Part shown: positions 1 through 50,684 of the stretch, one piece after another
How positions within the stretch are numbered: position 1 is the stretch's first letter
How the letters are laid out: each line of letters opens with the position of its first letter
Assembly: GCA_024653345.1 (NCBI GenBank)
Contig: JANLFV010000001.1
Location: forward strand, 84,387 to 148,386
From: Candidatus Acetothermia bacterium
Lineage (GTDB): Bacteria; Bipolaricaulota; Bipolaricaulia; RBG-16-55-9; JANLFV01
Reading direction: 5' to 3'
Length of the DNA stretch: 64,000 bases
Made by a program: the position numbers and the translations under genes
The notes under the pieces: generated by a model
Database searches by the model: none
What the model was told of the DNA's origin: nothing
The model's input: only the letters and a program-made list of their open reading frames with translations

Positions 1-1461
1 AACCCGGTCTTCTTCCCCGATGGCCAGAGGCTCCTGTTCGCGAAGCAGCGCTGGGGCGAGCGAAGCCCGGCCTTGGCGGCCCTGGACCTCTCGACCGGTG
101 AGGAGGAGATCCTGCAGGAGTTTCCCGACGGCCTCCTTATCGACTCGTTCTCCATCTCTCCGGACGGGAGCCGACTGGCTCTCTCCATCTGGCACTGGGG
201 TGGCTTTCAAGACATCTATCTCCTGCCCGCCGCGGGCGGGGAGTTGCTCCCGATCACCCAAGACCGGGCGACCGACCTCGATCCCACTTGGTCGCCCGAT
301 GGGCGGTTCGTGGTCTTCTCCTCCGATCGCGATGGTGTCAACAATCTTTATGCCTATCGCCTCGCCGACGGCGCATTCTTCAAGGTCACGAACGTCACCA
401 GCGGAGCCTTTGCGCCCGATCTCTCACCAGATGGGCAGGAGATCGCCTATGTCGGCTACTCCGTCGAGGGCTACGACCTGCGGATCCTGGACTGCGTGCC
501 TGAATCGTGGCGAGCAGTGAGCTTCAACGACGAACCGGTGCCGGAGTGGCCCGGCTGGCCCGAGCTGGAAGGCCCGGTTCATCGCTACAGCCCTTGGCCC
601 TCGCTCCTGCCGAAGCTCTGGCTCCCGCTCATCACCCCCGACGGCATGGGCCTGTTCACCTTCGGGAGCGACTACCTCTCCCAGCACGATTACTCGCTCG
701 TCGCGGGCTACGATTGGCGGAATCGAGAACCGTTCTACACCTTCAACTACGCCTCCCGCCGGCTTGGGCCGAGCCTCTCTCTCGGCCTCGAGAGCGGCTC
801 CCAAGGGGGCCGGCAGCAACTCCAGCTCATCATCCCGGTAGTGGACAGCCTGACAGAGTCGCAAGAGCTTCTGCTCGCCTATGAGCGACGAGATGGCGAA
901 GACCTCGTCAAAGGGGCCTGGAGACTTGCGGGCCGGCAGGGGTTCGACCTCCAGCGCGAGGAGCATCGGCTCGAAGTCGAGGGCGAGCTACGGAGGACGA
1001 GCGCAGGCCCCTACCGCGGGCTCATCCTCGACTGGCGCGAGCGGCTTCGCCTGCCGCTCGAGCGCGAGAACGAGCTGGCCCTGAAACTGACCTACGGCTG
1101 GCGGAGCCCCGGCGGGGAGCTCGAGCTCGGCGGACACGAGGGCAGGTTCATGCTCCGCGGCCTCCACCGGGGCGCACTGACCGGCCCGCAGGCCTTGGCT
1201 ACCAGCCTGGAATATCGCTTCCTCATCGGGAATATCGAGCGGGGCCTCGGCCTCTGGCCGTTCTTCCTCAACTGGCTGAAGGGGAGCCTCTTTCTCGACC
1301 TGGGGATGGCCGGGGAGCGGCTGAGGGCCGGCTTCGGCGTGGAGCTGAGACCCCAGCTGATCCTCGGCTATGCCCTCCCGCTGGAACTCCGCTTCGGGGT
1401 AGCTCAAGGGCTTGGCGAGAGCCGGCCCTCCTTCTATCTGGCCCTCGGGTCGGCCTCTTGA
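1..1461 (+). CDS. C-terminal part of a large outer-membrane protein (N-terminus lies upstream of the window). It is a paralog of the 6044..8818 product and has a PD40/TolB-like beta-propeller plus an Omp85-like C-terminal beta-barrel.
   Basis: The frame is open from position 1. Repeated SPDG-x-x-[LI] PD40 motifs are present. It aligns by eye along its length with residues ~440-924 of the 6044..8818 product, including the aromatic-rich C-terminal region (FYLALGSAS here versus FYLGFGSAF there). Confidence 0.6.
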   Translation, partial: NPVFFPDGQRLLFAKQRWGERSPALAALDLSTGEEEILQEFPDGLLIDSFSISPDGSRLALSIWHWGGFQDIYLLPAAGGELLPITQDRATDLDPTWSPDGRFVVFSSDRDGVNNLYAYRLADGAFFKVTNVTSGAFAPDLSPDGQEIAYVGYSVEGYDLRILDCVPESWRAVSFNDEPVPEWPGWPELEGPVHRYSPWPSLLPKLWLPLITPDGMGLFTFGSDYLSQHDYSLVAGYDWRNREPFYTFNYASRRLGPSLSLGLESGSQGGRQQLQLIIPVVDSLTESQELLLAYERRDGEDLVKGAWRLAGRQGFDLQREEHRLEVEGELRRTSAGPYRGLILDWRERLRLPLERENELALKLTYGWRSPGGELELGGHEGRFMLRGLHRGALTGPQALATSLEYRFLIGNIERGLGLWPFFLNWLKGSLFLDLGMAGERLRAGFGVELRPQLILGYALPLELRFGVAQGLGESRPSFYLALGSAS

Positions 1462-8818: not shown

Positions 8819-8827
8819 GAGGTGACG

Positions 8828-27384: not shown

Positions 27385-27933
27385 ATGAAGAAAGGTCAAC
27401 AGAAGAGGCTGCTCTGGGCCGGGGCGAGCCTAATAGTGTTATTCCTCGGGCTCCTCGGCCTCTTCCTCTCCGGGAAGATCGGCGACGAGGAAGGCGCGAA
27501 CCGGTTCACGATCGGGGGCTATACCTTGCCCCGGGCGCTCCCGGATTACGCCCGCCGGGACAACTATACCCTCGCGAGCTATATGACCGCCCTAGCGATG
27601 CCAAGGGCGCTGGAGCACATCCCCTGCTACTGTAGCTGCGATGCGGCCGGCCATGAGAATCTCGCCGACTGCTTCCTCGAGGGCAAGGGGTTCACCGCAC
27701 ATGGGGCGAACTGCGGGATCTGCAAGGTCGAGGCGGCCAAGGCCGCTGAATTGTTGCTGAAGGGGGCTTCGATAAAGGAGGCCCGGGCCCTCATCGAGCA
27801 ACAGTTCGGGAACGGCCACTACGGCCGGCCGACGCCCACCCCGCCGATCGCGGAGGATCGCTATCTCAGTGAGCTAGCACCCGAGCTCGACCGCGAGGCC
27901 TTCCAACGGGCCTTGAAGGAGTTGTTCGAATAG
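27385..27933 (+). CDS. PCYCGC-motif domain protein, a membrane-anchored putative metal-binding protein.
   Basis: N-terminal TM helix, then HIPCYCSCDAAGHENLADC and a further CGIC motif. Confidence 0.6.
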   Translation: MKKGQQKRLLWAGASLIVLFLGLLGLFLSGKIGDEEGANRFTIGGYTLPRALPDYARRDNYTLASYMTALAMPRALEHIPCYCSCDAAGHENLADCFLEGKGFTAHGANCGICKVEAAKAAELLLKGASIKEARALIEQQFGNGHYGRPTPTPPIAEDRYLSELAPELDREAFQRALKELFE

Positions 27934-27947
27934 GAAAAGGAGCAAAG

Positions 27948-28586
27948 ATGGGGATCCAGAGAGGCATCAACAGCAAGGAGCTTGCCGCAATCTGGCGGCC
28001 GATACTGGTGCTCGCCGGCCTGGTCTTGCTCTTTCTGACGGTCCTCAATAGTGCGATGCCCTCGGCAGCCTCGGGCGGGCCGGCGGTAGACGGAGTGATC
28101 GGCCCGGAGGAATATCAGTTCCACTACGCCGACCCGGACATCGGGATGGAGGTCTATTGGGCAATCACTGACCACGACTTCTATATCGGGCTCAGGGCCC
28201 CGGCCAAGGGGTGGCTCGCCCTCGGCCTCTACCCCGGGATCCCTCCCGAGGCCGAGGGGATGAAAGGGGCGGACATCTACATCGCCTATGTGAGCGGAGG
28301 TCGGGCCTTCGGCGGGGACCACTTCGCCGATAGCCTCTTCGGCCATCAGCCGGATACCGCGCTGGGCGGGACCGCGGACATCGCCGAGCTCGCCGGCTCC
28401 GAGGAGGCCGGCTCTACCACCATCGAGTTCAAGCGGGCGCTGAACACACTGGACAAGTTCGACGCCGATCTGCCCGTCCGCGGGCTGGTCTACCTCGCCT
28501 ACGCCGAGGCCGACGACTTCGCGCGGATCCACACAGCCCGGACCGAGGCGATCTTCAACTTCGCCACCGGAAGGGTGGAGAAGTAG
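27948..28586 (+). CDS. Membrane-anchored protein with a DOMON-like beta-sandwich domain (tentative).
   Basis: N-terminal TM helix. The extracytoplasmic domain has a DOMON-like aromatic/His pattern (FHYADPD...YWAITDHDFYIGL). Assignment from pattern memory only. Confidence 0.35.
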   Translation: MGIQRGINSKELAAIWRPILVLAGLVLLFLTVLNSAMPSAASGGPAVDGVIGPEEYQFHYADPDIGMEVYWAITDHDFYIGLRAPAKGWLALGLYPGIPPEAEGMKGADIYIAYVSGGRAFGGDHFADSLFGHQPDTALGGTADIAELAGSEEAGSTTIEFKRALNTLDKFDADLPVRGLVYLAYAEADDFARIHTARTEAIFNFATGRVEK

Positions 28587-28649
28587 GGGAGGGTGGGCTG
28601 ACCAAGGTCCCCGGCAGGCTGGGATTCTCAAGAGAAGGAGGAGTAAACG

Positions 28650-29057
28650 ATGGAGGAGAAGGGGCCTCGGGCACAAGCAAGTGAGCGGCCGATCGCGGCC
28701 TTCGTCCTCGCGCTCCTAGCTGGCTTGTGGATGGTAGCGGCAGGAGGAATGATGGCCGGTTTCGGCTGGGGCGCGGGCGGGATGAGCTGGATGTGGGGCC
28801 ATGGGATGATGGGCCGCTTCGGAAGCTTCGCTTCACCTTCGCCCTGGTGGCCCTGGCTCGGGCTCATCGCGGGTATCGTTGTCCTGGTCGGCGCGACGAT
28901 GCTCTACGCCCGGCCGAAGCAGGCCCAGGGGTGGGGGATCGTCATCCTGGTCGCCTCAGCGCTCAACCTCTTCCTGGGGATGGGCGGCATCCTCGCGAGC
29001 CTCCTCGGCATCATCGGCGGGGCACTGGCCCTGGCCGGCGGATCGAAGGGCAGTTGA
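28650..29057 (+). CDS. Small integral membrane protein with a Gly/Met/Trp-rich loop.
   Basis: Two or three TM helices flanking [31 protein letters not shown] before the ATG. Confidence 0.45.
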
Positions 29058-29070
29058 AAGAGGTGAAACC

Positions 29071-29643
29071 ATAAGTTACGACCTGATCATCCTCGGCTCA
29101 GGCTCGGCGGCCTTCGCCGCGGCCCTCAAGCAGCTGGGGGTCGAGGTGGCGATGCTCACCGGGGACAGCCGGGCCGTTGCCGAGTGGGTCGCCGGGGAGC
29201 TCGGCCTGGATGTGGTCTTCGCCGAGGTCAAGCCGGAGGAGAAGGCGGCCAAGGTGAAGGAGCTCCAAGCCCAAGGGAAGGTCGTGGCGATGGTGGGCGA
29301 TGGGATCAACGACGCCCCGGCGCTCGTCCAGGCCGATGTGGGGATCGCCATCGGCGCGGGGACCGATGTGGCGATCGAGTCAGCCGATGTCGTCCTGGTG
29401 AAGAACGACCCCCGGGATGTGGTCAAGCTGATCCGCCTCTCCCGGGCGACGATGCGCAAGATGCGCCAGAACTTGGTCTGGGCTACGGGCTACAACGCCG
29501 TGGCCATCCCCGCCGCGGCCGGGGTCTTCTACCCCCTGGGGCTGGTCCTCCGCCCGGAGTGGGGGGCGCTGATCATGGCCGCGAGCACGCTGATCGTCGC
29601 CGCTAACGCGCTCTTACTGCAGCGGGCTCGGCTGGAGGTTTAG
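29071..29643 (+). pseudogene. Truncated duplicate of the C-terminal ~190 aa of a copper P-type ATPase (a copA fragment with no plausible start codon).
   Basis: Its translation matches the hinge/TM region of the downstream CopA (residues ~640-829) almost co-linearly: [34 protein letters not shown]. It lacks the N-terminal HMA, CPC and DKTGT regions. There is no in-frame ATG/GTG near its 5' end. Confidence 0.55.
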
Positions 29644-29661
29644 GCTGGACTAGGGAGAGGA

Positions 29662-32151
29662 GTGATGAGCATAGAGAAGCTGGAGCTGAAGATCTCCGGG
29701 ATGACCTGCGCCTCCTGTGTAGCCAGGATCGAGAAGGGCCTCTCCGCGCTGGACGGCGTGGTGGAAGCCAGCGTCAACCTGGCCACGGAGCGAGCTAGGG
29801 TGGGCTTCGATCCCTCCAAGACCCGGCCTCAGGAGCTCGTCAAGGCCATCGAGGAGCTCGGCTATGAGGTCGAGCTGGCAAAGCTCAGCCTCCCCATCCA
29901 GGGGATGACCTGTGCCTCCTGTGTCAGGAAGGTCGAGGAGGCCTTGAAGGGCGTTCCAGGGGTCATCAAAGCCAGCGTCAACCTGGCTACGGAGCGGGCT
30001 ACGGTCGAATATCTCCCCGGTGTGGCCGGCCTGCAAGACCTCAAGCGGGCCGTCCATGACGCTGGCTATGAAGTCCTGGAGGTCGAGCCAGAAGCTGCCC
30101 TGGAGCGGGAGGAGCGGGCCCGGCGGCAGGCCTACCTCGGGCTGAAGCGGAAGCTCAGCCTCGGGCTCGCGCTCACCGTTCCCATCTTCCTCCTCACTTA
30201 CGCCGATCCCTTGGGGCTCGCGGCGCTGATCCCCTGGCGGCTCAATTCCCTCTTGCAGCTCCTCCTGGCCACGCCGGTCCAGTTCTGGGTCGGCTGGCAG
30301 TTCTACCGCCGGGCCTGGGCCGCGGCCAAGCACAAGACCGCTGATATGAACACCCTCATCGCCGTGGGGACCTCCGCAGCCTATATCTACAGCATGGTCG
30401 CCACCTTCTTCCCCGGGCTATTCGCCGCCGAGGGCCTGGGGGCCCATGTCTACTTCGACACCGCTGCGGCGATCATCGTCCTGATCCTCTTAGGAAGGCT
30501 CCTCGAGGCCCGGGCCCGGGGCCGGACCTCGGAGGCAATCAAGAAGCTCATGGGCCTCCGGCCGAAGACCGCCCGGGTCATCCGTGAGGGCCAAGAGGTC
30601 GACATCCCCGTGGAGGAGGTCGCGGTCGGGGAGATCGTCGTCGTGCGCCCGGGGGAGAAGATCCCCGTCGATGGGATGATCGTCGAGGGCTACTCCTCAG
30701 TCGATGAGTCGATGCTCACCGGGGAGTCCCTGCCGGTGGAGAAGGGGCCCGGATCGGAGGTGATCGGGGGGACGCTCAACCGGACCGGCTCCTTCAAGTT
30801 CAGGGCGACCAAGGTGGGGAAGGAGACGGCCCTGGCCCAGATCATCAGGCTGGTCGAGGAGGCCCAGGGCTCGAAGCCCCCGATCGCCCGGCTCGCGGAC
30901 ACCATCGCCGGCTATTTTGTCCCCGCGGTCATCGGGATCGCCTTGCTCACTTTCATCGCCTGGCTCCTCTTCGGCCCCGAGCCGCGCCTTACTTATGCCT
31001 TGCTCAACTCGATCGCTGTCCTGATCATCGCCTGCCCCTGCGCCCTCGGGCTGGCCACCCCCACTTCGATCATCGTCGGGACGGGGAAGGGGGCAGAGCA
31101 CGGCATCTTGATCCGCGGCGGCGAGGCCCTGGAGACGGCCCATAAGCTGGATGCGATCGTCCTGGACAAGACCGGGACCCTCACTCGCGGCGAGCCCCAA
31201 GTCACTGAGGTCATCTCGCAAGACGGCAATGAGGAGGCGGTCCTGGCCCTGGCCGCCTCCGCGGAGCGGGGCAGCGAGCACCCCCTGGGGGAGGCGATCG
31301 TCCGGCGGGCTCAGGAGCTGGGGCTCGAGCTAGCCGATCCGGAGGAGTTCGAGGCCCTCCCTGGGAGGGGAGTCCGGGCCCGGGTCGATGGCCGAGAGGT
31401 CCTCTTGGGGAACCTCCGGCTGATGGAGGACGAAGGGCTCGATCTTGGAGGGCTGGGCGAGGAGGCCGCGCGGCTCTCCGCGGCGGGGAAGACGCCCATG
31501 TTCTTAGCCGTTGATCGAAGAGCGGTGGGGATCATCGCCGTGGCCGATACCCTGAAGGAGGGCTCGAAGGAGGCGGTGGCAGCCCTCAAGGGCCTGGGCC
31601 TCGAGGTGCTCATGATCACCGGGGACGACCGCCGGACCGCGGCGGCGATCGCCAGGGAGGCTGGGCTCGAGCCCGACCGCGTCCTGGCCGAGGTCCTCCC
31701 TCAAGACAAGGTCTTGGAGATCAAGAGGCTCCAGGCCCAGGGCCTGCGGGTGGCGATGGTCGGGGACGGGATCAACGATGCCCCGGCCCTGGCCCAAGCG
31801 GATGTGGGAATCGCGATCGGGACCGGGACGGATGTGGCCATGGAGGCCGCGGACATCACCCTGGTCGGGGGCGACCTCCGCGGGGTGGTCACGGCCATCG
31901 CTTTGAGCAGGGCCACGATCCGGAACATCCGGCAGAACCTCTTCTGGGCCTTCTTCTACAATGCCATCCTCATCCCTGTGGCTGCGGGGGTCCTCTATCC
32001 CTTCTTCGGGCTCTTGCTCTCCCCGATCTTCGCCGCCGCGGCGATGGGTGCCTCCTCGGTGACCGTAGTGAGCAACGCCCTCCGGCTCCGGCGGTTCGCG
32101 CCCCCGCTAGGGCGGGGAGTGCGGGTCGCTCCCGCTCCTATTGAAGCCTAG
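29662..32151 (+). CDS. copA: Copper-translocating P1B-type ATPase.
   Basis: Two N-terminal HMA domains (GMTCASCV twice), the CPC motif ([10 protein letters not shown]), [17 protein letters not shown] and HP. 829 aa. Confidence 0.95.
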
Positions 32152-32212
32152 GGCGGGCTCTGTTACGATCAATCCGATCCCCAAAAAGGATCGGCTGGGA
32201 AAGGAGCGGACA

Positions 32213-33001
32213 GTGAAAGGCTTCATCTCGATGAGGTGGTCGGCCCTGGTCATCGGGCTGGTCCTGGCCGGGGGGTTCTTCCTCGCCGGGCTCTTCACCC
32301 ATGAGTTGATCTTCCCCCAGCGGGGCTTGGAGGAGTTGAAGGCCCGGGTCGCAGAGCTCCAGGGGCAAGTGAAGGCCCTGAGTGAGCAGGTGGCCAAGCT
32401 AGCGGCCCAAGCCCAAGCTCCGGCCCAGGCTCAGGCCCAGAGGCCCGAGGGGCCGGAGCGGGTCGAGGTGAGCGTCGACGACGACCCCGCGCTCGGGCGG
32501 CCCGAGGCCCCGGTGGTGATCGTGGAGTTCTCCGACTTCCAGTGCCCCTACTGCGCCCGGTTCGCTCAACAGACCTTCCCCCAGCTCAAGAAGGAATACA
32601 TCGATACCGGGAAGGTGCGGCTCGTCTTCCGCGACTTCCCGCTCTCGTTCCACCAGAATGCCGCGCCGACGGCCGAGGCGGCCCAGTGCGCCCACGAGCA
32701 GGGCCGCTTCTGGGAGTATCACGACCGGCTCTTCGCCGGGCAGGGGGAGTGGTCCGGGAGCGCCAGCGCCAGCCAGATCTTCGCCGGCTATGCCGAGGGG
32801 CTCGGCCTGGATGGGGCGAGGTTCCGCGAGTGCCTCGCCTCCAGGCGCTACAAAGAGGAGGTGCAGCGGGATTTCAATGACGGTATAGGCTACGGCGTGA
32901 CGGGGACCCCGACCTTCTTCATCAACGGGCGGAAGCTCGTCGGGGCCCAGCCGTTCAGTGCCTTCCAGCAGATGATCGAGGCCGAGCTGAAGGGAGGATA
33001 G
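32213..33001 (+). CDS. Membrane-anchored DsbA-like thiol:disulfide oxidoreductase (thioredoxin fold).
   Basis: TM helix, a coiled-coil linker, then FSDFQCPYCARF (CPYC active site) and the DsbA-family C-terminus. Start chosen at a GTG with a nearby AAAGGAG; ATG 32231 is the alternative. Confidence 0.8.
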   Translation: MKGFISMRWSALVIGLVLAGGFFLAGLFTHELIFPQRGLEELKARVAELQGQVKALSEQVAKLAAQAQAPAQAQAQRPEGPERVEVSVDDDPALGRPEAPVVIVEFSDFQCPYCARFAQQTFPQLKKEYIDTGKVRLVFRDFPLSFHQNAAPTAEAAQCAHEQGRFWEYHDRLFAGQGEWSGSASASQIFAGYAEGLGLDGARFRECLASRRYKEEVQRDFNDGIGYGVTGTPTFFINGRKLVGAQPFSAFQQMIEAELKGG

Positions 33002-33005
33002 AGAG

Positions 33006-33308
33006 ATGGCCCAAGGAGCGGCCCTGAAGAAGGGGAGCTTGGCGGTCTTCCCCGAGGTCAAGCGGGGACTCCAGCGGAGGATGCGGACCGTCGTCGGCCA
33101 CATCCAGGCGATCGAGCGGATGATTGAGGAGGAGCGCTACTGCGTCGAGATCTTAAAGCAAATAGCGGCCGTCCAGGCCCAGCTCTCGAACATCGCCCAT
33201 GAATTGACCAAGAGCCACATGAAGGGCTGCCTCACCGGGGCGATCCACGCCGGCCACGGCGAGGAGGCGATCGAGGAGCTGGCCGAGATCCTCAAATACC
33301 TCCGCTAG
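33006..33308 (+). CDS. csoR: CsoR/RcnR-family metal-sensing transcriptional repressor.
   Basis: GHIQAIERMIEEERYCVEILKQ...HMKGC with the conserved Cys/His ligand positions of the CsoR family. Confidence 0.85.
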   Translation: MAQGAALKKGSLAVFPEVKRGLQRRMRTVVGHIQAIERMIEEERYCVEILKQIAAVQAQLSNIAHELTKSHMKGCLTGAIHAGHGEEAIEELAEILKYLR

Positions 33309-33315
33309 AGCCCGC

Positions 33316-33344
33316 TTGACTGGGGCGCCACCGCTCTATATAAT
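33316..33344 (+). promoter_or_regulatory. Consensus sigma70 promoter (TTGACT, 17 nt, TATAAT) for the pst operon.
   Basis: TTGACT at 33316-33321 and TATAAT at 33339-33344 with exactly 17 nt between. It lies 57 nt upstream of the pstS ATG. Confidence 0.55.
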
Positions 33345-33348
33345 CCGG

Positions 33349-33369
33349 CTGTGACATATATAGTCACAG
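33349..33369 (+). promoter_or_regulatory. Perfect 7-7-7 palindrome CTGTGAC-ATATATA-GTCACAG immediately downstream of the -10; a candidate operator.
   Basis: Seen directly. Its position at +1 to +25 relative to the promoter is typical of a repressor site. Confidence 0.4.
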
Positions 33370-33400
33370 ACCAAACTATAGATTAAAGGGGTGGTTCACT

Positions 33401-34309
33401 ATGGGCAAGCGGCTCCTCTGCTCGATCCTCCTCGGCCTGTTGTTCCTCGGGCTCCAAGCCGGTGCGCGCTCCCCGGCCGAGCTGAAGCTCGAGGGCTCGA
33501 CGACGGTGCTCCCGATCGCCGGGCGGGCGGCCGAGCTCTTCCAGGCCCTCTACCCCGAGATCTGGGTCACCATCAAGGGCGGCGGCTCCTCGGTCGGGAT
33601 CGCGGCCCTCATCAACGGGACGACCGACATCGCCAACGCCTCGAGGGCGATGAAGCCCGCGGAGCTGGCCAAGCTCCCCACCGCGGTGGAGCACGCGATC
33701 GCCAAGGACGGGATCGCCATCGTCGTCCATCCCAGCAACCCGATCGAGGGGCTCACCCTCGAGCAGATCGCGGAGATCTACACCGATCCTTCGATCAGGA
33801 ACTGGAGGGAGCTCGGCGGGCCCGATCTCCCGATCGTGGTGGTCTCCCGCGACACGACCTCCGGGACTTACGGCTCGTTCATCGAGCTGGTCATCGAGCC
33901 TGTGAAGGGCAAGGGTGCGCAACTCCGGCCGGACATCATCTATGTCGGCTCGAACGCCGAGGCCGTCGCGACCGTCGAGGGCGCGGAAGGTGCGATCGGC
34001 TACATCGGGCTCGGCTACCTGAAAGAGAGCCTGAGGCCCCTCCCGGTCTCCAAGGGCGGCGGGCCCTACATCCTGCCGACCGCCCGAGCCGTCCTCTCCG
34101 GGAGCTATCCGATCAGCCGCGACCTCTACATGTATACCGATGGGGTCCCGGATCCGCGCGAGCCGAGAGGGCTCTGGCTCGACTTCATCTACAGCCGGAC
34201 CGGCCAGTGCGTCGTCCTCGAGCAGGGGTTCGTGGCCTTCTACCCCATCGATCTCGCGGTTTGCGAGGCCCTCTTTTCGGCCCTGGGGAGCGAGTTCATT
34301 AAGAGATGA
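33401..34309 (+). CDS. pstS: Phosphate ABC transporter substrate-binding protein.
   Basis: Signal peptide, a PBP-like_2 family pattern (GSTTVLP...GGGSSVG...YPI) and its position before pstC/A/B. Confidence 0.9.
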   Translation: MGKRLLCSILLGLLFLGLQAGARSPAELKLEGSTTVLPIAGRAAELFQALYPEIWVTIKGGGSSVGIAALINGTTDIANASRAMKPAELAKLPTAVEHAIAKDGIAIVVHPSNPIEGLTLEQIAEIYTDPSIRNWRELGGPDLPIVVVSRDTTSGTYGSFIELVIEPVKGKGAQLRPDIIYVGSNAEAVATVEGAEGAIGYIGLGYLKESLRPLPVSKGGGPYILPTARAVLSGSYPISRDLYMYTDGVPDPREPRGLWLDFIYSRTGQCVVLEQGFVAFYPIDLAVCEALFSALGSEFIKR

Positions 34310-35187
34310 TCCGGCAGGCCTGGCGGGAGAGGTCGATCCGCGGGCTCTTCTTCCTCGCCGCGGCCACCTCGATCATCATCCTCTTGCTGATCATGCTCTT
34401 CCTCTTCGGCGAGGGCCTGCCGCTCTTCCGGGCTTATGGCCTCTGGGACTTCCTCGCGGGGCAGTTCTGGGCCCCTACCGCCGAGCCGCCAAGGTTCGGG
34501 CTCCTGCCCTTGCTCCTCGGCTCGCTCTGGGTCACCTTTGGGGCGCTCTTGCTGGCCGTCCCGCTCGGGCTCGGCGCGGCGATCTACATCGCCGAGCTCG
34601 CGCCCGCGGGCCTGCGCGAGCTGCTCAAGGCCCTGGTGGAGGTCCTCGCCGCGATCCCCTCGGTCGTCTACGGCTTCTTCGCCCTGGTGATCATCGTCCC
34701 CTGGGTCAAGGCGAGCTTCCATCTCCCGATCGGGAAGACGGCCCTCAGCGCCTCGCTCGTCCTGGGGGTGATGGCCCTCCCGACGATCGTCAGCCTGGCC
34801 GAGGACGCCCTCACTGGCGTCCCGAGGGGCTTCCGCGAGGCCGCGCTCGCGCTGGGGGCCACCAAGTGGCAGACGATCTGGCGGGTGACGGTCCCGGCAG
34901 CCCTCTCCGGGATCTCCACGGCCGTGATCCTCGGGGCGGGGCGGGCGATCGGGGAGACCATGACCGTCCTGATGGTGAGCGGGATGGCCCCCATCATCCC
35001 CCACTCCTTCCTCCAGCCGGTCCGGCCGCTCACGGCCACGATCGCCGCCGAGGTCGGGGAGGCCGTCTGGGGGAGCCCCCACTACCACGCGCTCTTCGCC
35101 CTGGGGATCGTCCTCTTCCTCCTCTCGCTGGGGATCAACCTCCTCGCGGAATGGCTCACCTCGCGCTACCGCGGAGTGAAGGTATGA
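34306..35187 (+). CDS. pstC: Phosphate ABC transporter permease PstC.
   Basis: Six TM helices and the EAA-like motif region ALGATKWQTIWRVTVPAA. Confidence 0.9.
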   Translation: MIRQAWRERSIRGLFFLAAATSIIILLLIMLFLFGEGLPLFRAYGLWDFLAGQFWAPTAEPPRFGLLPLLLGSLWVTFGALLLAVPLGLGAAIYIAELAPAGLRELLKALVEVLAAIPSVVYGFFALVIIVPWVKASFHLPIGKTALSASLVLGVMALPTIVSLAEDALTGVPRGFREAALALGATKWQTIWRVTVPAALSGISTAVILGAGRAIGETMTVLMVSGMAPIIPHSFLQPVRPLTATIAAEVGEAVWGSPHYHALFALGIVLFLLSLGINLLAEWLTSRYRGVKV

Positions 35188-36035
35188 GGCTCCGGCGGCT
35201 CACCCAGGCAGCGGCCTTCGCGTTCCTCACCCTGGCGATGGCCGCGGTCCTCCTCGCCTTGGGGACGATCCTTTACTACATCCTGGCGCGGGGGGCAGGC
35301 GCGATCTCCTGGGAGTTCCTCACCTCCTTCCCTAGGAGGGGGATGACCGCGGGCGGGATCTTCCCCGCGATCGTGGGGACCTTTTACCTTGCGGTCGGGA
35401 CCCTCATCTTCTCTCTCCCTTTGGGGATCTGCGCCGCGATCTACCTCGTGGAGTATGCCCCCCAGGGGCGGGCGGTCCGGCTCATCCGCATGGCGGTGAA
35501 CAACCTCGCGGGGGTCCCGTCGATCGTCTTCGGCCTCTTCGGCCTGGCCTTCTTTGTGAGGCTCCTCGGGCTGGGGGTCTCGATTCTCTCCGGCTCGCTC
35601 ACCCTGGCCTTCCTCGTCCTGCCGACGATCATCCGGGCGAGCGAGGAGGCCCTCCGCGCTGTGCCCCAGGAGTTCCGGGAGGGGGCCCTCGCCCTGGGGG
35701 CCACGCGGTGGCAGATGATCCGCAGGGTCGTCCTCCCCGCCGGGCTCCCGGGGGTCCTCACGGGGGCGATCCTGGCCTTGGGAAGGGCGGCGGGCGAGAC
35801 GGCCCCGATCATCTTCACCGCCGCGGTCTTCTCCGCCAGGCTCCCCAACTCCCCCCTCTCACCGGTCATGGCCCTCCCCTACCACCTCTTCGTCATGGCC
35901 ACGGAGAGCATCTTCTACGAGGAGACCCGCCCGATCCAGTATGGCACGGCGATCGTGCTTCTGGGGCTGGTCCTGGCGCTCGACCTGGTCGCGATCCTCG
36001 TCCGCGCCCGCCTCCGCCGCGGGAGGCGGTGGTAA
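35184..36035 (+). CDS. pstA: Phosphate ABC transporter permease PstA.
   Basis: The ATG overlaps the pstC stop (ATGA). TM protein with the motif ALGATRWQMIRRVVLPA. Confidence 0.9.
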   Translation: MRLRRLTQAAAFAFLTLAMAAVLLALGTILYYILARGAGAISWEFLTSFPRRGMTAGGIFPAIVGTFYLAVGTLIFSLPLGICAAIYLVEYAPQGRAVRLIRMAVNNLAGVPSIVFGLFGLAFFVRLLGLGVSILSGSLTLAFLVLPTIIRASEEALRAVPQEFREGALALGATRWQMIRRVVLPAGLPGVLTGAILALGRAAGETAPIIFTAAVFSARLPNSPLSPVMALPYHLFVMATESIFYEETRPIQYGTAIVLLGLVLALDLVAILVRARLRRGRRW

Positions 36036-36056
36036 CCGCGCCCGTGGGGGGATAGA

Positions 36057-36824
36057 ATGCCCAAGGAGATGCTCGAGCCGGTGATCGTCGTCGAGGACCT
36101 CGATTTCTACTACGGCAAGGAGCAGGCCCTCCGGGGTGTCTCCCTCTCGATCCCGAGGAACAAGGTCACCGCGATCATCGGCCCCTCCGGCTGCGGGAAG
36201 AGCACCTTCCTCAAGACACTGAACCGGCTCCATGAGCTGATCCCCGGCGCGAGGGTCAAGGGGCGGGTCCTCTTCAACGGCCGGGACATCCTCTCCAGGG
36301 AGGTCGACCCGGTGGAGCTGCGGCGGCGGATCGGGATGGTCTTCCAGAAGCCGAACCCTTTTCCCAAGTCGGTCTTCGAGAATGTGGCCTTCGGCCTAAG
36401 GGTGAACGGCGATGTCTCGAACCTCAAGGAGAAGGTCGAGCAGGCCCTCCGCCGCGCGGCCCTCTGGGATGAGGTGAAGGACAAGCTCCAACGGAGCGCC
36501 TTCGACCTCTCGGGTGGCCAGCAGCAGCGGCTCTGCATCGCCCGGGCGCTCGCGGTCGAGCCGGAGGTCTTGCTAATGGACGAGCCCTGCAGCGCACTCG
36601 ACCCGATCGCGACCGCCAAGATCGAGGACCTCATCCTCGAGTTGAAGGAGGACTATACGGTCATAATCGTGACCCACAACATGCAGCAGGCGGCCAGGGT
36701 GAGCGACTACACCGCCGTCTTTCTCACCGGCGGGGTGATGGTCGAGTTCGCCGAGACGAAGAAGATCTTCGAGAACCCGGCCAACAAGATGGTCGAGGAT
36801 TACATTACGGGGAAGTTCGGCTAA
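36057..36824 (+). CDS. pstB: Phosphate import ATP-binding protein PstB.
   Basis: Walker [10 protein letters not shown], signature LSGGQQQRL, Walker B LLMDEP. 255 aa. Confidence 0.95.
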
Positions 36825-36828
36825 TCTC

Positions 36829-37491
36829 ATGGCCCGCGAATCCTATCGGCGGCAGCTTGACGAGCTGAGCGACGCGGTCCTTTCGATGGGGAACCTCGTC
36901 GCCTCGAGGCTGGGGAAGGGATTAGAAGCCCTCAAGCGGCCCGAGCCGGAGCTGATCGAGGAGCTCTTCCGCGGGGACGACGAGGTCGACCGGCTCTACA
37001 GCAAGATCGAGCGGCGGTGCATCGACCTGTTGGCCCTCCAGCAGCCGGTGGCGGTCGACCTCCGGCTGATCACCACGGCCTTCAAGATCTCGACCGACAT
37101 CGAGCGGGTCGGGGACATCGCGGTCAACCTCGGCCAGTATGCCCGGAACTACCACCTCAATCTCAGGCTCCTCCCCCATGAGCAGCTCTTCTCCATCGGG
37201 GACCTGGTGACGACCATGGTCTATGAGTCGCTGAAGGCCTTCTACGATAAGGATCCCCGCCGGGCCGAGGAGGTCCTCGAGCTCGATGACCAGGTCGACC
37301 GGATGTTCTGGGACCTCGTCTCACGGCTGATCGAGGACCTGCGCGGCTCGCCTGACCGAGGCGAGGAGATCGTGACCGGGGCGGTCGCGCTCCTCCTCTC
37401 GATCCGGGACTTGGAGCGGGTCGCGGACCACGCGGTCAACATCGCCGCCCGGACGATCTACATGATCGAGAGCCGGGCCGACTATATCTGA
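36829..37491 (+). CDS. phoU: Phosphate transport system regulator PhoU.
   Basis: Two PhoU repeats with the conserved D/E..ER.GD motifs (ERVGDIAVN; ERVADHAVN). Confidence 0.9.
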   Translation: MARESYRRQLDELSDAVLSMGNLVASRLGKGLEALKRPEPELIEELFRGDDEVDRLYSKIERRCIDLLALQQPVAVDLRLITTAFKISTDIERVGDIAVNLGQYARNYHLNLRLLPHEQLFSIGDLVTTMVYESLKAFYDKDPRRAEEVLELDDQVDRMFWDLVSRLIEDLRGSPDRGEEIVTGAVALLLSIRDLERVADHAVNIAARTIYMIESRADYI

Positions 37492-38519
37492 ATCTGAGCC
37501 GGTCCGTCTCCGTGCAGCGGGGGCATGGCCGCGTTGAGCACGACCTCGGCGATGTTCGTAGTGTAGTCGCTCACGCGCCTGATGCTATCGACCACGATCC
37601 CCAGAGCTTCCGCAGCGCGCGGCCGCTTCGAGGCATCCAGCTCGAGCTGCCAGAGCAGCTCGCCCACCCTGAGAAGCAGTCCCTCCATCGCTGCGGCCCG
37701 GTCGATGACCTCGTTGGCTTTCGCGAGATCGAGTTGGCTCAGCGCCTGGGCCGCTCCTTCGAGACGAGTGACCACCTCCCGGTTCGCCCGCGCGATCGTC
37801 TCGCGCAGCCCCGGAGAGATCGACTGCTCCAGGGCCATGACTGCCCGGGCGATCTTCACCGCGTGGTCGGCGATGCGCTCCACCTGCTTGGTCGCGGTGT
37901 AGTAGTCGAAGAGCCTCAGCCGAGCCGCTTCCTCGCCCAGGATGTCCTGGAGCGCGATTCTCAATTGGCGCGAGAGCATGAGGAAGAGGCGGTCGACCTC
38001 GCTGTCCCGGCCGATCACATCGCGGGCCAGCTCGCTGTCCCGCTCGAGCAAGGCCCGGACGGCATCTTCGAGCATCGACTTGGCGATGGAGTAGATCCTC
38101 TCGAAGGTCCGCTCGGCCGAGACCTCGCTCAGATCAAGCAGGTTGTGGATCACTATGGACTCGCCTGACTCCTCGACGATCTCCGGGCCGATAAGGGTCC
38201 GGCTGACCTCGCGGATCACCCTGCGCTGGTCCGGGCTGATCCGCTCGCCCCGAATCTCGATGATCTCGAACCCCGCAATGTAGAGGGAGATGATCTCCCT
38301 GGCCAGGGCCTCACCTGCGAGCTGCCCCCTCTGATCGGTAAGCCTGAAGATGACCCTGGCCGGCCGAGGGCGCTCCTCCGGGAGGAGGATGAGGGCCTCC
38401 CCACGGGGCGCGAGCCGCAGGGGCGAGCCGGCCCGCAGCCCGACCTTCTCCGCCCAGCCCTTGGGGAGTGTGATCATGAACGTCGCCCCGCCAGTTATCT
38501 GGACCTTACGGACCTCCAT
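37482..38519 (-). CDS. Phosphate uptake regulator with an N-terminal SpoVT/AbrB DNA-binding domain fused to two PhoU domains.
   Basis: The N-terminus VQITGGATFMITLPKGWAEKVGL is an AbrB/MazE-type swapped-hairpin motif. Two PhoU-like repeats follow (RIADHAVKIA; RVSDYTTNIA). Confidence 0.75.
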   Translation of the reverse strand: MEVRKVQITGGATFMITLPKGWAEKVGLRAGSPLRLAPRGEALILLPEERPRPARVIFRLTDQRGQLAGEALAREIISLYIAGFEIIEIRGERISPDQRRVIREVSRTLIGPEIVEESGESIVIHNLLDLSEVSAERTFERIYSIAKSMLEDAVRALLERDSELARDVIGRDSEVDRLFLMLSRQLRIALQDILGEEAARLRLFDYYTATKQVERIADHAVKIARAVMALEQSISPGLRETIARANREVVTRLEGAAQALSQLDLAKANEVIDRAAAMEGLLLRVGELLWQLELDASKRPRAAEALGIVVDSIRRVSDYTTNIAEVVLNAAMPPLHGDGPAQIQI

Positions 38520-38632
38520 CTATATAGATCACCAAGGCATTATATAGGAGGAGAGAAGGCCGAGCAAGCCCAAGCTTGGCGGAGAGGGCCGATGAGGAGT
38601 AGGATGGCCTCAGCTCAGGCTGAGGAGGCAGT

Positions 38633-39471: not shown

Positions 39472-42195
39472 ATGCGGAGGATACTCTTGCGTGCGGTGCT
39501 CCTAAGCGTGCTGACCCTGTTACTTTGCGGGGCAGCCTTGGGACAGGGGGGAGGTCGGATCCCCGTAGGCGAACATCCGCGCTCCATCGCCGTGCTGGAC
39601 TGCAATCGGGATGGGTGGGATGACTTTGTCGTGGGCAACGAGCTCTCCAACGATATCACCATAGCCGTTGCTCAAAGGAACGGCTTTTTTCAGGTAACAA
39701 CTCTGCCGACCCCGGCGATCATCCCCATGGCTACCGCGGCTGGTGATTTGGACTCTGATTCCGACAAAGATCTGGTCCTAGTGGCCTGCGGACTCGCTGT
39801 TGAGACAGCTCACTCCGAGGTTACGGGCGTCTATGTCACTAAGGCGTTCAACGTGTTCACCTTTGAGAACAACGGTAGTTGCGGTTTCTCTCTTAAACAT
39901 AAGCTCCGGGCTGGGGATTGTCCCAGCGCGGTCGCTCTCGCTGACTTGAATCGGAATCACAAGCTGGACATCATCGTAGTTAACTCTGAGTCAAGGAGTC
40001 TCACGCTCTTCATCGACGTCACGGGAATACCACCGGTAGAAGTGAGCCTTGCGGATTGTGCACAGCCAGTGGCCTTGGATATCGGGGACATCAACCGCGA
40101 TGCTATACCCGATGCCGTCGTCGCCTGCTCCGAATCTGACACGGTCTGGGCTCTCCTAGGGACCGGTGCTCCTCCTTTCTTCGTTCTTCCTCCTGCTCAG
40201 GTCATCGCTACTGGAGAACGGCCGATGGACGTGGAGCTCGCTGACATCAATGGTGACACTATTCTGGACCTAGTCGTGGCTCACTTCGAGTCCGACAAGG
40301 TATGGACCTTCTTCGGGGATGGGACGGGGCTCTTTGGCGATGCTACTCTCCAGAACAGCCGTATCGCTGCCGGCAGCTTTAAGAAAGGCCAGCCCCACGC
40401 CACGTATCATGTCGATCAGGCCCCCTCCGCTTTGCTCCTTCGGGACTTCAATCAGGACGGAATGCTGGACATGGTCGTGACAAATGCCTATGCTGACGAC
40501 GTTTGGCTCCTCTGCGGAAGGCACGATGAGAGGAGCAACAAGGGGGATTTCGTATCGGGAGGCAAGTGGCCCGTTGGCGAGAAGCCCGTAGCTCTAGCCT
40601 CGGGCGACTTCGACGCCGTCCGTGACGGCTGGCTCGATATAGTCGTAGCTAATGAGCTCTCCAATGATGTGAGCATCCTCCTAGGAAGGCCGAGAGAATG
40701 GTGCTACGAATTCCTTCCGCCGCCAGAGAACAAGCCGCCGGTCGCGGACTTCAGCTACTCCCCCGCTCAGCCGAAGGCCGGGGAGAAGGTGAGGTTCGAC
40801 GGCTCCTCCTCCAGCGACCCCGACGGCCAGGTCATCTCCTGGAGCTGGGACTTCGGCGACGGGAAGACCGGCACGGGGAAGATCGTCGAGCACACTTTCG
40901 AGAAGGAGGGCCAGTATAAGGTCTGCCTCACGGTCAAGGACGACAAGGGCGCGGAGGGGCAGGCCTGCGAGGACCTTACTGTCGGGCCTCCGCCGCCCCC
41001 GCCAGCGACCAAGCTGCCCACGGTCGGGGACGAGCCGAGCGGGCTGGCCTCGGGTGACTTCAATGGCGACAGGAAAGAAGACCTGGCCGTAGTGAACCAG
41101 AACTCGAACAACCTCTCGGTCCTCCTCGGGAGCGGGGACGGCAAGTTCAGCCCTGGCGGGACGGTCGCCACAGGCAGGGGCCCGAGCGCCGTCGTCTCTG
41201 CAGACTTCAACAAGGACAATCAGCTCGATCTGGCCGTGAGCAACGCTGGCTCGAACACCGTCTCGATCCTCATCGGCGACGGAAAGGGCGGATTCCACGG
41301 CCGGGGCGAGCTTGCGGTGGGGAGCAATCCCATGGGCCTGGCCTTCGAGGACTTCGACAAGGACGGGAAGCTCGACCTGGCTCTGGCCAACTCCGGGGCC
41401 AACAATGTCTCGATCCTGCTCGGGAACGGGGACGGAAGCTTCAAGGAGGCCCGGAACACCGAGCCGATCGGGAACTCGCCGGAGAAGCTGGCCCCGGCCG
41501 ACCTTAATGGTGATGGGAAGGTCGATCTGGCCGTAGCAAGCCTCAACTCCGGGGAGATCTTCATCCTGCTTGGCAACGGCGACGGGACCTTCGCAGTCGG
41601 GACCAAGCTTGCCGGCCTCAACCATCCTCGCGGCCTGACCATCGACGACTTCAACAACGACGGTAAGAAGGACATTGCCGTCGCGGTCTCCGATGCCAAC
41701 ACGGTAGCCCTCTTCTTGGGGAAGGGGGACGGGAGCTTCGAGGAGCCGCTCTCGGCCAAGGTCGGGGACTCCCCAAGGACGCTGGTGGCCGGGAAGTTCA
41801 ATGCCGACGCCAACCTCGATCTGGCCGTGGCAAACTACACCTCCGGCAATGTCTCGATCCTGCTGGGCAAGGGCGACGGCTCGTTCGAGGAGCAGAAGCT
41901 CTTCAAGGTAGGTGAAAAGCCCAATGGGATCGTGGCCGGGAAGTTCAACGCCGATGCCAATGTCGATCTAGCCGTGGCAAACGCCGGCTCGGACAACGTC
42001 ACAATCCTGCTCGGGAAGGGGGACGGGAGCTTCGAGGACCCGCCGCTCAGCTTCATAGGGAGCGCCTGGAGCGGGGTGCTCGTCGGGGGCCTGGGCTCGC
42101 TAGTCTTCTTCCCTCTCCTGCTCTGGCTCTGGGCGCTCTGGACGAGTGACGACCGCCGGAGGGCCCTCTGGGCTAAGCTCGGCCTGAGGAGGTGA
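39472..42195 (+). CDS. Large cell-surface protein with N-terminal and C-terminal blocks of FG-GAP/VCBS-like repeats, a central PKD domain and a C-terminal TM anchor followed by an Arg cluster.
   Basis: Signal peptide. Recurrent ~65 aa units ending D[LI]xVxNxxSN[DN]VSILLG (integrin-alpha FG-GAP-like). PKD motif WSWDFGDG. C-terminal LVFFPLLLWLWALW then DDRRR. Confidence 0.7.
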   Translation: MRRILLRAVLLSVLTLLLCGAALGQGGGRIPVGEHPRSIAVLDCNRDGWDDFVVGNELSNDITIAVAQRNGFFQVTTLPTPAIIPMATAAGDLDSDSDKDLVLVACGLAVETAHSEVTGVYVTKAFNVFTFENNGSCGFSLKHKLRAGDCPSAVALADLNRNHKLDIIVVNSESRSLTLFIDVTGIPPVEVSLADCAQPVALDIGDINRDAIPDAVVACSESDTVWALLGTGAPPFFVLPPAQVIATGERPMDVELADINGDTILDLVVAHFESDKVWTFFGDGTGLFGDATLQNSRIAAGSFKKGQPHATYHVDQAPSALLLRDFNQDGMLDMVVTNAYADDVWLLCGRHDERSNKGDFVSGGKWPVGEKPVALASGDFDAVRDGWLDIVVANELSNDVSILLGRPREWCYEFLPPPENKPPVADFSYSPAQPKAGEKVRFDGSSSSDPDGQVISWSWDFGDGKTGTGKIVEHTFEKEGQYKVCLTVKDDKGAEGQACEDLTVGPPPPPPATKLPTVGDEPSGLASGDFNGDRKEDLAVVNQNSNNLSVLLGSGDGKFSPGGTVATGRGPSAVVSADFNKDNQLDLAVSNAGSNTVSILIGDGKGGFHGRGELAVGSNPMGLAFEDFDKDGKLDLALANSGANNVSILLGNGDGSFKEARNTEPIGNSPEKLAPADLNGDGKVDLAVASLNSGEIFILLGNGDGTFAVGTKLAGLNHPRGLTIDDFNNDGKKDIAVAVSDANTVALFLGKGDGSFEEPLSAKVGDSPRTLVAGKFNADANLDLAVANYTSGNVSILLGKGDGSFEEQKLFKVGEKPNGIVAGKFNADANVDLAVANAGSDNVTILLGKGDGSFEDPPLSFIGSAWSGVLVGGLGSLVFFPLLLWLWALWTSDDRRRALWAKLGLRR
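41785..42078 (+). repeat. Near-identical tandem duplication (2 x 147 nt, 49 aa units) inside the FG-GAP gene.
   Basis: The two units (VAGKFNADANLDLAVANYTSGNVSILLGKGDGSFEE.. and VAGKFNADANVDLAVANAGSDNVTILLGKGDGSFED..) are far more similar at the DNA level than the other repeats. Coordinates are approximate to within 5 nt. Confidence 0.4.
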
Positions 42196-42199
42196 CTCC

Positions 42200-50398: not shown

Positions 50399-50474
50399 TG
50401 GCGGTCCCAAGGGGATTCGAACCCCTGTTTCCGGCTTGAGAGACCAGTGTCCTAGGCCGCTAGACGATGGGACC
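50399..50474 (-). tRNA. tRNA-Glu (anticodon CUC).
   Basis: Reverse complement GGTCCCATCGTCTAGCGGCCTAGGACA CTGGT CTCTCAA GCCGG AAAC AGGGGTTCGAATCCCCTTGGGACCGCCA. Cloverleaf with 7-bp acceptor, TTCGAAT T-loop and encoded CCA. The body closely resembles bacterial tRNA-Glu. Ends are within 2 nt. Confidence 0.7.
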
Positions 50475-50495
50475 TCTAAGGGAGGCCGCGCCTCC

Positions 50496-50569
50496 TGGCT
50501 GGGAGAGGAGGATTCGAACCCCCACTAACAGGTCCAGAGCCTGTCGTCCTACCGTTAGACGATCTCCCA
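50496..50569 (-). tRNA. tRNA-Gln (anticodon CUG).
   Basis: Reverse complement TGGGAGATCGTCTAACGGTAGGACG ACAGG CTCTGGA CCTGT TAGT GGGGGTTCGAATCCTCCTCTCCCAGCCA. U1:A72 is typical of bacterial tRNA-Gln. Anticodon loop CU-CUG-GA. Confidence 0.7.
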
Positions 50570-50684
50570 ATCCGGCCCTAATCTTACCGGAGGGGGCAGT
50601 TCTTGTCAAACCCTTCCCGTCTCGACCTGAGCTTGACACCCCCGCGCGGAGAGGATTAGACTCGATCGGAAGGGGAGGGATGGG

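Follow-up and report, generated by a model that had tools for sequence, protein, structure and literature searches.

How is a pst phosphate-uptake operon controlled in a bacterium that carries no phoBR pair beside it? The question is raised by the pstSCAB-phoU locus of a Candidatus Acetothermia/Bipolaricaulota metagenome-assembled genome (MAG), which we analysed within a 64-kb stretch of DNA, called the window below (guanine-plus-cytosine (GC) content ~66%). Convergent with the operon lies a gene, abrB-phoU, whose product joins a DNA-binding domain to PhoU domains. The segment 33316-33383 is probably a phosphate-controlled promoter-operator of pstSCAB-phoU, in which a sigma70 promoter is combined with three phased boxes with a TATA core and AbrB-PhoU serves as repressor. 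From the sequence comparisons below, AbrB-PhoU is a well-supported candidate for an autoregulated repressor acting on these boxes. Coordinates are collected in Table 1, and related loci are cited by their L numbers.

The preliminary description had placed a sigma70 promoter upstream of pstS and a palindrome at once behind it. Judged by its conservation, 33316-33344 is a real sigma70 promoter for pstSCAB-phoU. The hexamers TTGACT and TATAAT, with a 17-nt spacer, match the sigma70 consensus at 11 of 12 positions, and nowhere else on the two strands of the 64 kb does a sequence reach 11/12 against TTGACA-16..18-TATAAT (0.06 in shuffled sequences). Across 7 orthologous loci (PstS 76-91% identical), TTGAC, CTATATAAT, the ATATATA of box 2, the AAAnTATnGA at box 3 (alignment A4) and the Shine-Dalgarno sequence were all invariant, while the -35/-10 spacer and the arms of the palindrome were variable. 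The Shine-Dalgarno sequence of pstS is GGGGTG at 33388-33393, and the ATG is at 33401. The palindrome is indeed close to the promoter, although 4 nt (CCGG) intervene between TATAAT and CTGTGAC. The transcription start was assumed, from the position of the -10, to lie near 33351.

With hexamers so near to consensus, the pstS promoter should need no activator. A PhoB-type Pho box was rejected: its tandem 7-nt direct repeats with an 11-bp period would take the place of the -35, but here that hexamer is intact and the TATA-core boxes downstream of it, with a 20-bp period, are the sole repeats. The contrast drawn earlier with direct-repeat Pho boxes was thus upheld. Tandem promoters were also rejected, box 2 having no -35. 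Pfam scans of essentially all (~60) open reading frames (ORFs) in the window found no response regulator, histidine kinase or cyclic-nucleotide-binding protein. The earlier remark that no phoBR is nearby is thus correct for the 64 kb that the scans covered, and for these only.

The feature that ties this promoter to the convergent gene is the TATATA core. TATATA occurs only 4 times in the 64 kb (33337, 33357, 38521 and 38541), always in the promoter of pstS or of abrB-phoU, and the copies form two pairs, each exactly 20 bp apart. Within each pair, one TATATA overlaps the -10. Its partner forms the centre of the palindrome in the pstS promoter; for abrB-phoU, where both copies fall in the 113-bp region upstream of the gene, it is part of the ATCTATATAGAT palindrome, a site conserved in L001, L081, L083 and L084. 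Written as TATATAAT-N12-TATATAG, the module has two perfect occurrences in the window, both reading in the sense direction of their genes, where 0.00 were expected even at ≤2 mismatches. From this comparison, the conserved shared element is the TATATA core, formerly regarded as the spacer of the palindrome, together with the two boxes 20 bp either side of it, and not the arms. The proposal that AbrB-PhoU represses through the palindrome therefore stood in part: the candidate regulator was supported by the shared module, the conservation of the box and the control loci, and the element on which it would act moved from the arms to the core and its flanking boxes.

The box was followed through the relatives of abrB-phoU. 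As TCTATATAG(A), it recurs upstream of abrB-phoU genes (43-77% protein identity) in Bipolaricaulota, Fraserbacteria and MAGs labelled 'uncultured Thermotogae'. Its place at the abrB-phoU promoter differs between loci: in the -35/-10 spacer (L002-L005 and L025), just past the -10 (L007-L012), directly against the ATG (the window, L001 and L081) or ~16 nt upstream of the ATG (L083/L084). In L002 and L003, whose PstS is only 25-27% identical to that of the window, a perfect GATCTATATAGATC stands right after the pstS -10, equivalent to the position of box 2. Boxes were counted as matches to TCTATATAGA at ≤1 mismatch in a zone 400 bp upstream of abrB-phoU. Among the bacterial loci (n = 14), 11 of 33 box matches fell in this zone, in 11 loci (0.8 expected). 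Among the haloarchaeal loci (n = 66, GC 65%), it held 43 of 61 matches (1.3 expected).

The haloarchaeal boxes had a regular position. In 55 of the 66 loci a TATATAG or CTATAGA box was located at -44 to -51 from the abrB-phoU ATG, the TCTATAGA variant taking the position of TCTATATAGA in many of them. The abrB-phoU gene is divergent from pstSCAB(-phoU) in 52/66 of these loci, and additional boxes are present ~100-170 bp upstream of the divergent pstS. In Haloferax volcanii the boxes are located at about -48 from the ATG of HVO_2374 and ~140-170 bp upstream of pstS1. That the haloarchaeal box is simply the TATA box was rejected, since a separate TTTAT element (at -29 to -33) follows 16-18 bp downstream. 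A further idea is that the AbrB-PhoU operator mimics a basal promoter element of its host domain; the regulator would bind two TATA cores about two helical turns apart, one of them being or directly abutting that element. The element would be the -10, as TATATAAT, in bacteria; in haloarchaea the box sits upstream of the TTTAT TATA box, next to the transcription factor B recognition element (BRE). We regard this idea as speculative and, on balance, rather unlikely.

As a negative control we used 79 pst loci without an adjacent abrB-phoU gene, which came from other phyla and, at 44% GC, were more AT-rich. They were taken from a metagenome scan with a PstS alignment, which yielded no close orthologues, the PstS homologues recovered being only 40-50% identical. 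No box at ≤1 mismatch was found within 200 bp upstream of pstS in these control loci (0/79), and one was found within 400 bp (1/79). Because the module is restricted to the two promoters in the window, the box is conserved from Bipolaricaulota to haloarchaea and it is missing from the 79 controls, these sequences tie the abrB-phoU gene strongly to the pstS promoter. One relative, L088 (972-6788), has no box and has lost csoR, the pstS promoter and abrB-phoU together. This is a natural deletion, in keeping with a regulator that travels with its operator. In L088 pstS follows directly after dsbA, and the nitroreductase gene directly after phoU.

Other occurrences of the box and features of the relatives were recorded. 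An extra TCTATATAG-type box is found inside the pst operon, in the pstA/pstB gap, in the Natrialbaceae loci L042, L045, L048, L053, L055, L061 and L074 (~6640-6890), and L002 and L003 have an internal box between pstS and pstC; such positions suggest internal regulated promoters or roadblocks. The more distant pstS orthologues L086 and L089 have longer leaders, each with a short ORF preceded by its own strong Shine-Dalgarno sequence (L086 5255-5302, L089 2560-2586). The ORFs encode the possible leader peptides MAHKTAGLQRVHTPR and MAQRGKQI, and arrays of TATAT[AT] boxes, 17-21 bp apart, precede them. In L002 (9875-10000), and at the equivalent position in L003 and L005, a Fur-family (Zur-like) regulator gene and a znuA/ABC zinc-uptake operon are transcribed divergently from abrB-phoU, and the intergenic region that they share with it also contains a Fur-box-like inverted repeat, TTATTGAAAAnnATTTTCA.

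The fusion of a SpoVT/AbrB domain to two PhoU domains, read earlier from the translation, was confirmed by Pfam. SpoVT/AbrB (PF04014) matched residues 8-51 (E = 3.4e-7, 30.6 bits versus a cut-off of 24.7), and PF01895 (PhoU) matched twice (E = 1.4e-24). TIGR01439 scored 20.8 bits, below its cut-off of 28.3. Full-length homologues with the same two Pfam domains numbered ~90, with 43-78% identity in Bipolaricaulota and 30-40% in Archaea, and genome contigs yielded 423 related stretches. An NCBI entry from the Candidatus Acetothermia/Bipolaricaulota group is 100% identical to the protein of the window. In 26 homologues (alignment A1) the AbrB signature LPKxW was invariant, as were the D/ExxxD positions of PhoU (D172/D176, E214/D218, D311 and E325). 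The AlphaFold2 model (predicted local distance difference test, pLDDT, 85.4) comprises an AbrB segment at the N terminus, an alpha/beta domain in the middle and, at the C terminus, a PhoU six-helix bundle, which superposes on PhoU crystal structures (Foldseek top matches, template modelling (TM) score 0.81-0.85). The AbrB-type segment was modelled at lower confidence than the rest, an outcome to be expected of a domain whose fold is a swapped dimer. A search of the PDB returned no structure of an AbrB-PhoU fusion.

The middle domain, residues 55-126 (38142-38357), was modelled confidently as alpha/beta and has no Pfam match. Weak Foldseek matches to a Pyrococcus horikoshii 'potassium channel related' protein (1vct, 2bko) may concern this domain or the PhoU part. 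On the strength of the model, the middle domain could be a ligand-binding or oligomerisation module.

What, then, are the arms of the palindrome for? The perfect palindrome described earlier, CTGTGAC-ATATATA-GTCACAG, is present and was found once in the window at ≤2 mismatches. Perfect inverted repeats with 7-bp arms and loops of 3-10 nt number 99 in the window versus ~60 in shuffles (15 have a 7-nt loop), so the palindrome is not statistically unusual. As to its presence in orthologous pst promoters, the ATATATA core is kept in the close ones; the arms vary there (CGTGGC/GCCAAA in L081, TGTAAC/TTTGCA in L083) and are gone from the more distant L086, L089 and L090. The abundance of such repeats in the window and the loss of the arms at a distance fit a chance inverted repeat without function, only the promoter and the AT-rich core mattering. 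Pairing survives two double substitutions in the close orthologues, however, and we consider a chance origin rather improbable.

The same substitutions bear on a role in RNA. In six distinct orthologous sequences, 90.5% of the cells of the 7-bp helix pair, compared with 21-48% in slid controls; the observed values were reached by only 6-7 of 500 shuffles, a figure that kinship among the six inflates. Two compensatory double changes occurred (A-T to G-C in L081 and L172, G-C to A-T in L083), and five one-sided changes are of the G.U type on the sense strand. These changes fit an RNA hairpin at least as well as they fit a protein site. The arms, a lineage-specific addition, may form a 5'-terminal stem-loop on the pst mRNA, GUGAC-AUAUAUA-GUCAC with a start near 33351, which would protect the transcript from 5'-end-dependent RNases or modulate translation, and this would be compatible with the TATATA core doubling as a DNA operator. 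The outer two pairs, which are decaying, would lie upstream of the predicted start, and the hairpin belongs to the predicted minimum-free-energy fold of the leader. Its folding energy is ordinary (z = -1.07), the start is an assumed one, the six related sequences hold about two independent events, and the arms are absent from the three distant orthologues. The case resembles the 5'-terminal stabilising stem-loops of ompA in E. coli and of aprE and ermC in Bacillus in having a short predicted hairpin at the 5' end with covariation in the stem, and differs in that the stem is only 5-7 bp long, with an assumed start and six sequences. A stem-loop as a second function of the arms is plausible on thin evidence, and we rate it as a possibility of the lesser sort.

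Alternatively, the whole 7-7-7 palindrome could be the operator, with an AbrB-PhoU dimer reading CTGTGAC/GTCACAG as half-sites. The inverted repeat is perfect and lies immediately past the -10, the symmetry of the inner arms is upheld by the paired changes in orthologues, and in the abrB-phoU promoter, too, the second box has GTGA before it. Nothing there corresponds to the right arm, though, and the arm letters are not conserved in L081 and L083. The TATA-core box is all that is shared by the more distant pstS promoters and by every abrB-phoU promoter, and perfect 7-bp inverted repeats are common in the window. We consider an operator of this form improbable.

The arms also contain exact TGTGA and TCACA half-sites, which raise the prospect of a different regulator: a dimer of the CRP/FNR type, the CsoR-family repressor encoded upstream, or a PhoB-type regulator elsewhere in the genome. 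Only 8 nt, with no terminator, separate the csoR stop codon from the pstS -35, so transcription might read through into pst, and genes outside the 64-kb window could encode a regulator. Half-sites of CRP sites are 6 nt apart. Here the spacing is 9 nt and the half-sites are not conserved in L081, L083 and L172, and with no CRP-family gene in the window a CRP-type site was rejected. A CsoR operator was rejected because the motif tracks pst and not csoR; in L002, L003, L089 and L090, which lack an adjacent csoR, the box still goes with pstS and abrB-phoU. For a two-component regulator there is neither a candidate protein in the window nor a direct-repeat Pho box, and the -35 is intact. Control by any of these regulators appears very unlikely.

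We therefore return to AbrB-PhoU acting on the TATA-core boxes. The promoter architecture, its conservation, its co-occurrence with abrB-phoU and the domain structure of the protein are observations; for binding, direction of regulation and signal we propose the following. An AbrB-PhoU oligomer would bind the boxes through its N-terminal swapped-hairpin AbrB domains and block RNA polymerase at the pstS and abrB-phoU promoters. With sufficient phosphate this would give repression of pst and negative autoregulation of abrB-phoU; on starvation the PhoU domain would take up the phosphate signal and the protein would leave the DNA. The signal might come from the Pst transporter, from the stand-alone PhoU, or from direct binding of a ligand or metal at the conserved D/ExxxD motifs. 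A spacing of 20 bp corresponds to two helical turns, so that all boxes look to the same side of the DNA, an arrangement suited to AbrB-domain dimers that oligomerise. Boxes over the -10, the predicted start and the early leader or, in other lineages, over the -35/-10 spacer have classical repressor geometry, and the same module at the abrB-phoU promoter suggests autoregulation and makes AbrB-PhoU the most parsimonious binder.

Several points weigh against this interpretation. The boxes of the pstS promoter are degenerate (8/10 and 7/10 matches to the consensus), and box 1 could be conserved merely as the -10. For some bacterial abrB-phoU genes (L007-L013), no pst operon was found within 10 kb. 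The sequence specificity of AbrB-type domains is usually loose. The gene content covers 64 kb, and PhoBR or another box-reading regulator may be encoded elsewhere. Lastly, the pho-boxes of the Halobacterium salinarum pst promoters are required for upregulation, according to PMC6560208 (citing Furtwangler et al. 2010), which suggests activation, not repression, in archaea.

The closest known relatives of this system are haloarchaeal. PhoU-type transcription factors and functional pho-boxes have been described in haloarchaea (PMC6560208), PhoU2 of H. volcanii (HVO_2374) has been predicted to be a regulator (PMC6267482), and the AbrB-PhoU protein TK2245 of Thermococcus kodakarensis was found associated with the chromosome (PMC7325993). 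The literature searched contained no biochemical study of any member of the AbrB-PhoU family and no bacterial example. The haloarchaeal proteins share with ours the architecture of one AbrB and two PhoU domains (37-41% identity over ~97% of the length), the linkage to pstSCAB-phoU, a TCTATATAGA-type box upstream of both the regulator gene and pst, and the lack of a PhoBR-type system alongside. They differ in host, the one here being a bacterium whose promoter is of the sigma70 type, in orientation, the gene here being convergent with pst instead of divergent, and in the position of the boxes. Those of the window overlie the -10 and the start, whereas the proximal haloarchaeal box precedes the TATA box by 16-18 bp and lies beside the BRE. 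Among the related bacterial loci, abrB-phoU is convergent with pst in L081, L083 and L084, as in the window, divergent in L090, and in tandem in L089 and L106.

Compared with the Pho regulon of E. coli and Bacillus, in which PhoB or PhoP acts on Pho boxes and sensing involves PhoR, PstSCAB and PhoU, the target operon is the same, a PhoU module would take part in signalling, and a stand-alone PhoU is also encoded. In contrast, the -35 is near consensus and not replaced by direct repeats, an activator would not be required, and neither a response regulator nor a kinase is encoded in the window. Direct fusion of the DNA-binding domain to PhoU makes this a one-component system, unlike PhoBR. AbrB-type regulators are known for autoregulation, operators that overlap promoters, and multimeric binding to phased AT-rich sites, and the proposed system would share these traits. 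Its N-terminal domain matches PF04014 and, below the cut-off, TIGR01439, as for the swapped-hairpin regulators and antitoxins of the AbrB/SpoVT/MazE/MraZ group; unlike these, it has a C-terminal PhoU six-helix-bundle sensor and an extra alpha/beta domain, and its inferred operator is a defined 10-bp palindrome, not the loose AbrB consensus.

Table 1. Features of the pst/abrB-phoU locus, in window coordinates.
Feature	Position	Strand	Remarks
-35 hexamer of pstS, TTGACT	33316-33321	+	TTGAC invariant in orthologues (alignments A2, A4)
-10 hexamer of pstS, TATAAT	33339-33344	+	inside box 1; CTATATAAT invariant in orthologues
Box 1, TCTATATAAT	33335-33344		8/10 match to the TCTATATAGA consensus; overlaps the -10; TATATA at 33337
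Box 2, CATATATAGT	33355-33364		TATATA core 33357-33362, over the predicted transcription start and exactly 20 bp beyond that of box 1
Box 3, CTATAGAT	33376-33383		short box variant in the 5' untranslated region; TATA core at 33377, 20 bp beyond box 2
Composite module TATATAAT-N12-TATATAG, pstS copy	33337-33363	+	exact; also in L081, L082, L171, L172
Composite module TATATAAT-N12-TATATAG, abrB-phoU copy	38520-38546	-	sense orientation; also in L001, L081
Palindrome of 7-7-7 nt	33349-33369	+	CTGTGAC (33349-33355), ATATATA (33356-33362), GTCACAG (33363-33369)
Perfect 12-bp palindrome ATCTATATAGAT	38518-38529		contains TCTATATAGA at 38519-38528 (0 mismatches); includes the first two bases of the start codon of abrB-phoU
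Putative abrB-phoU promoter	38539-38567	-	-35 TTGCTC (38562-38567), 17-nt spacer, -10 TATAAT (38539-38544); arrangement kept in L001, L081, L083
pstS	33401-34309	+	Pfam
pstC	34306-35187	+	Pfam
pstA	35184-36035	+	Pfam
pstB	36057-36824	+	Pfam
phoU	36829-37491	+	Pfam; TIGR02135 equivalog, 185.9 bits; canonical stand-alone PhoU
pstS-pstC-pstA-pstB-phoU operon	33401-37491	+	synteny kept in L081, L083, L084
abrB-phoU, 345 aa	37482-38519	-	convergent to the pst operon; Pfam SpoVT/AbrB and two PhoU repeats

The 3' ends of phoU and abrB-phoU, on opposite strands, share 10 bp (37482-37491), and the same overlap was found in L081, L083 and L084. No terminator-like site was found between the two gene ends in the window. 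Strong transcription of pst would enter abrB-phoU in the antisense direction. Such an antisense run might act as a feed-forward loop during derepression.

Directly upstream of the pst promoter is a copper/redox cluster (27385-33308), which encodes a PCYCGC-motif protein, a DOMON protein, a HAD hydrolase, a P-type ATPase with two HMA domains, a DsbA-like thioredoxin and the CsoR-family repressor. The window also has candidate genes for phosphorus scavenging, a phytase-like esterase (8822-9940) and a type I phosphodiesterase/nucleotide pyrophosphatase (12578-14215), and no TCTATATAGA-type box was found near either. Positions 39472-46020, downstream of the nitroreductase gene, encode three predicted surface proteins of very large size, rich in FG-GAP, PKD, VWA and LTD domains; synteny is kept for the first two in L081 and for the first in L083. 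The region 50399-50684 contains genes for tRNA-Glu(CTC) and tRNA-Gln(CTG) on the minus strand, together with two back-to-back sigma70-like promoters, each a 10/12 match, which face the tRNAs and a Memo-like gene (first bases of the -35 elements: minus strand, 50609; plus strand, 50633).

The idea of AbrB-PhoU as a phosphate regulator is not new, having been proposed for haloarchaea (PMC6560208, PMC6267482). As the haloarchaeal PhoU factors and pho-boxes are already described, the locus is a bacterial member of a known, poorly characterised kind. What is new here is a defined box conserved across both domains and a two-box promoter module shared by pst and the regulator gene. Phosphate sensing in Archaea and in bacteria that lack PhoBR is still poorly defined, and AbrB-PhoU proteins are annotated merely as 'phosphate uptake regulator PhoU'. 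For these proteins, the locus and its relatives yield a concrete candidate operator (the TCTATATAGA-type box, in copies 20 bp apart in this lineage), a set of targets (pst and the regulator's own gene) and a predicted direction, namely repression at a consensus sigma70 promoter. Since the same box is present in genetically tractable haloarchaea such as Haloferax, the hypothesis is directly testable there and, for the uncultured Bipolaricaulota, in vitro. If the operator does mimic the basal promoter element of its host domain, one regulator-operator cassette would keep working after transfer between Archaea and Bacteria, and AbrB-PhoU would be the missing one-component phosphate regulator of organisms without PhoBR.

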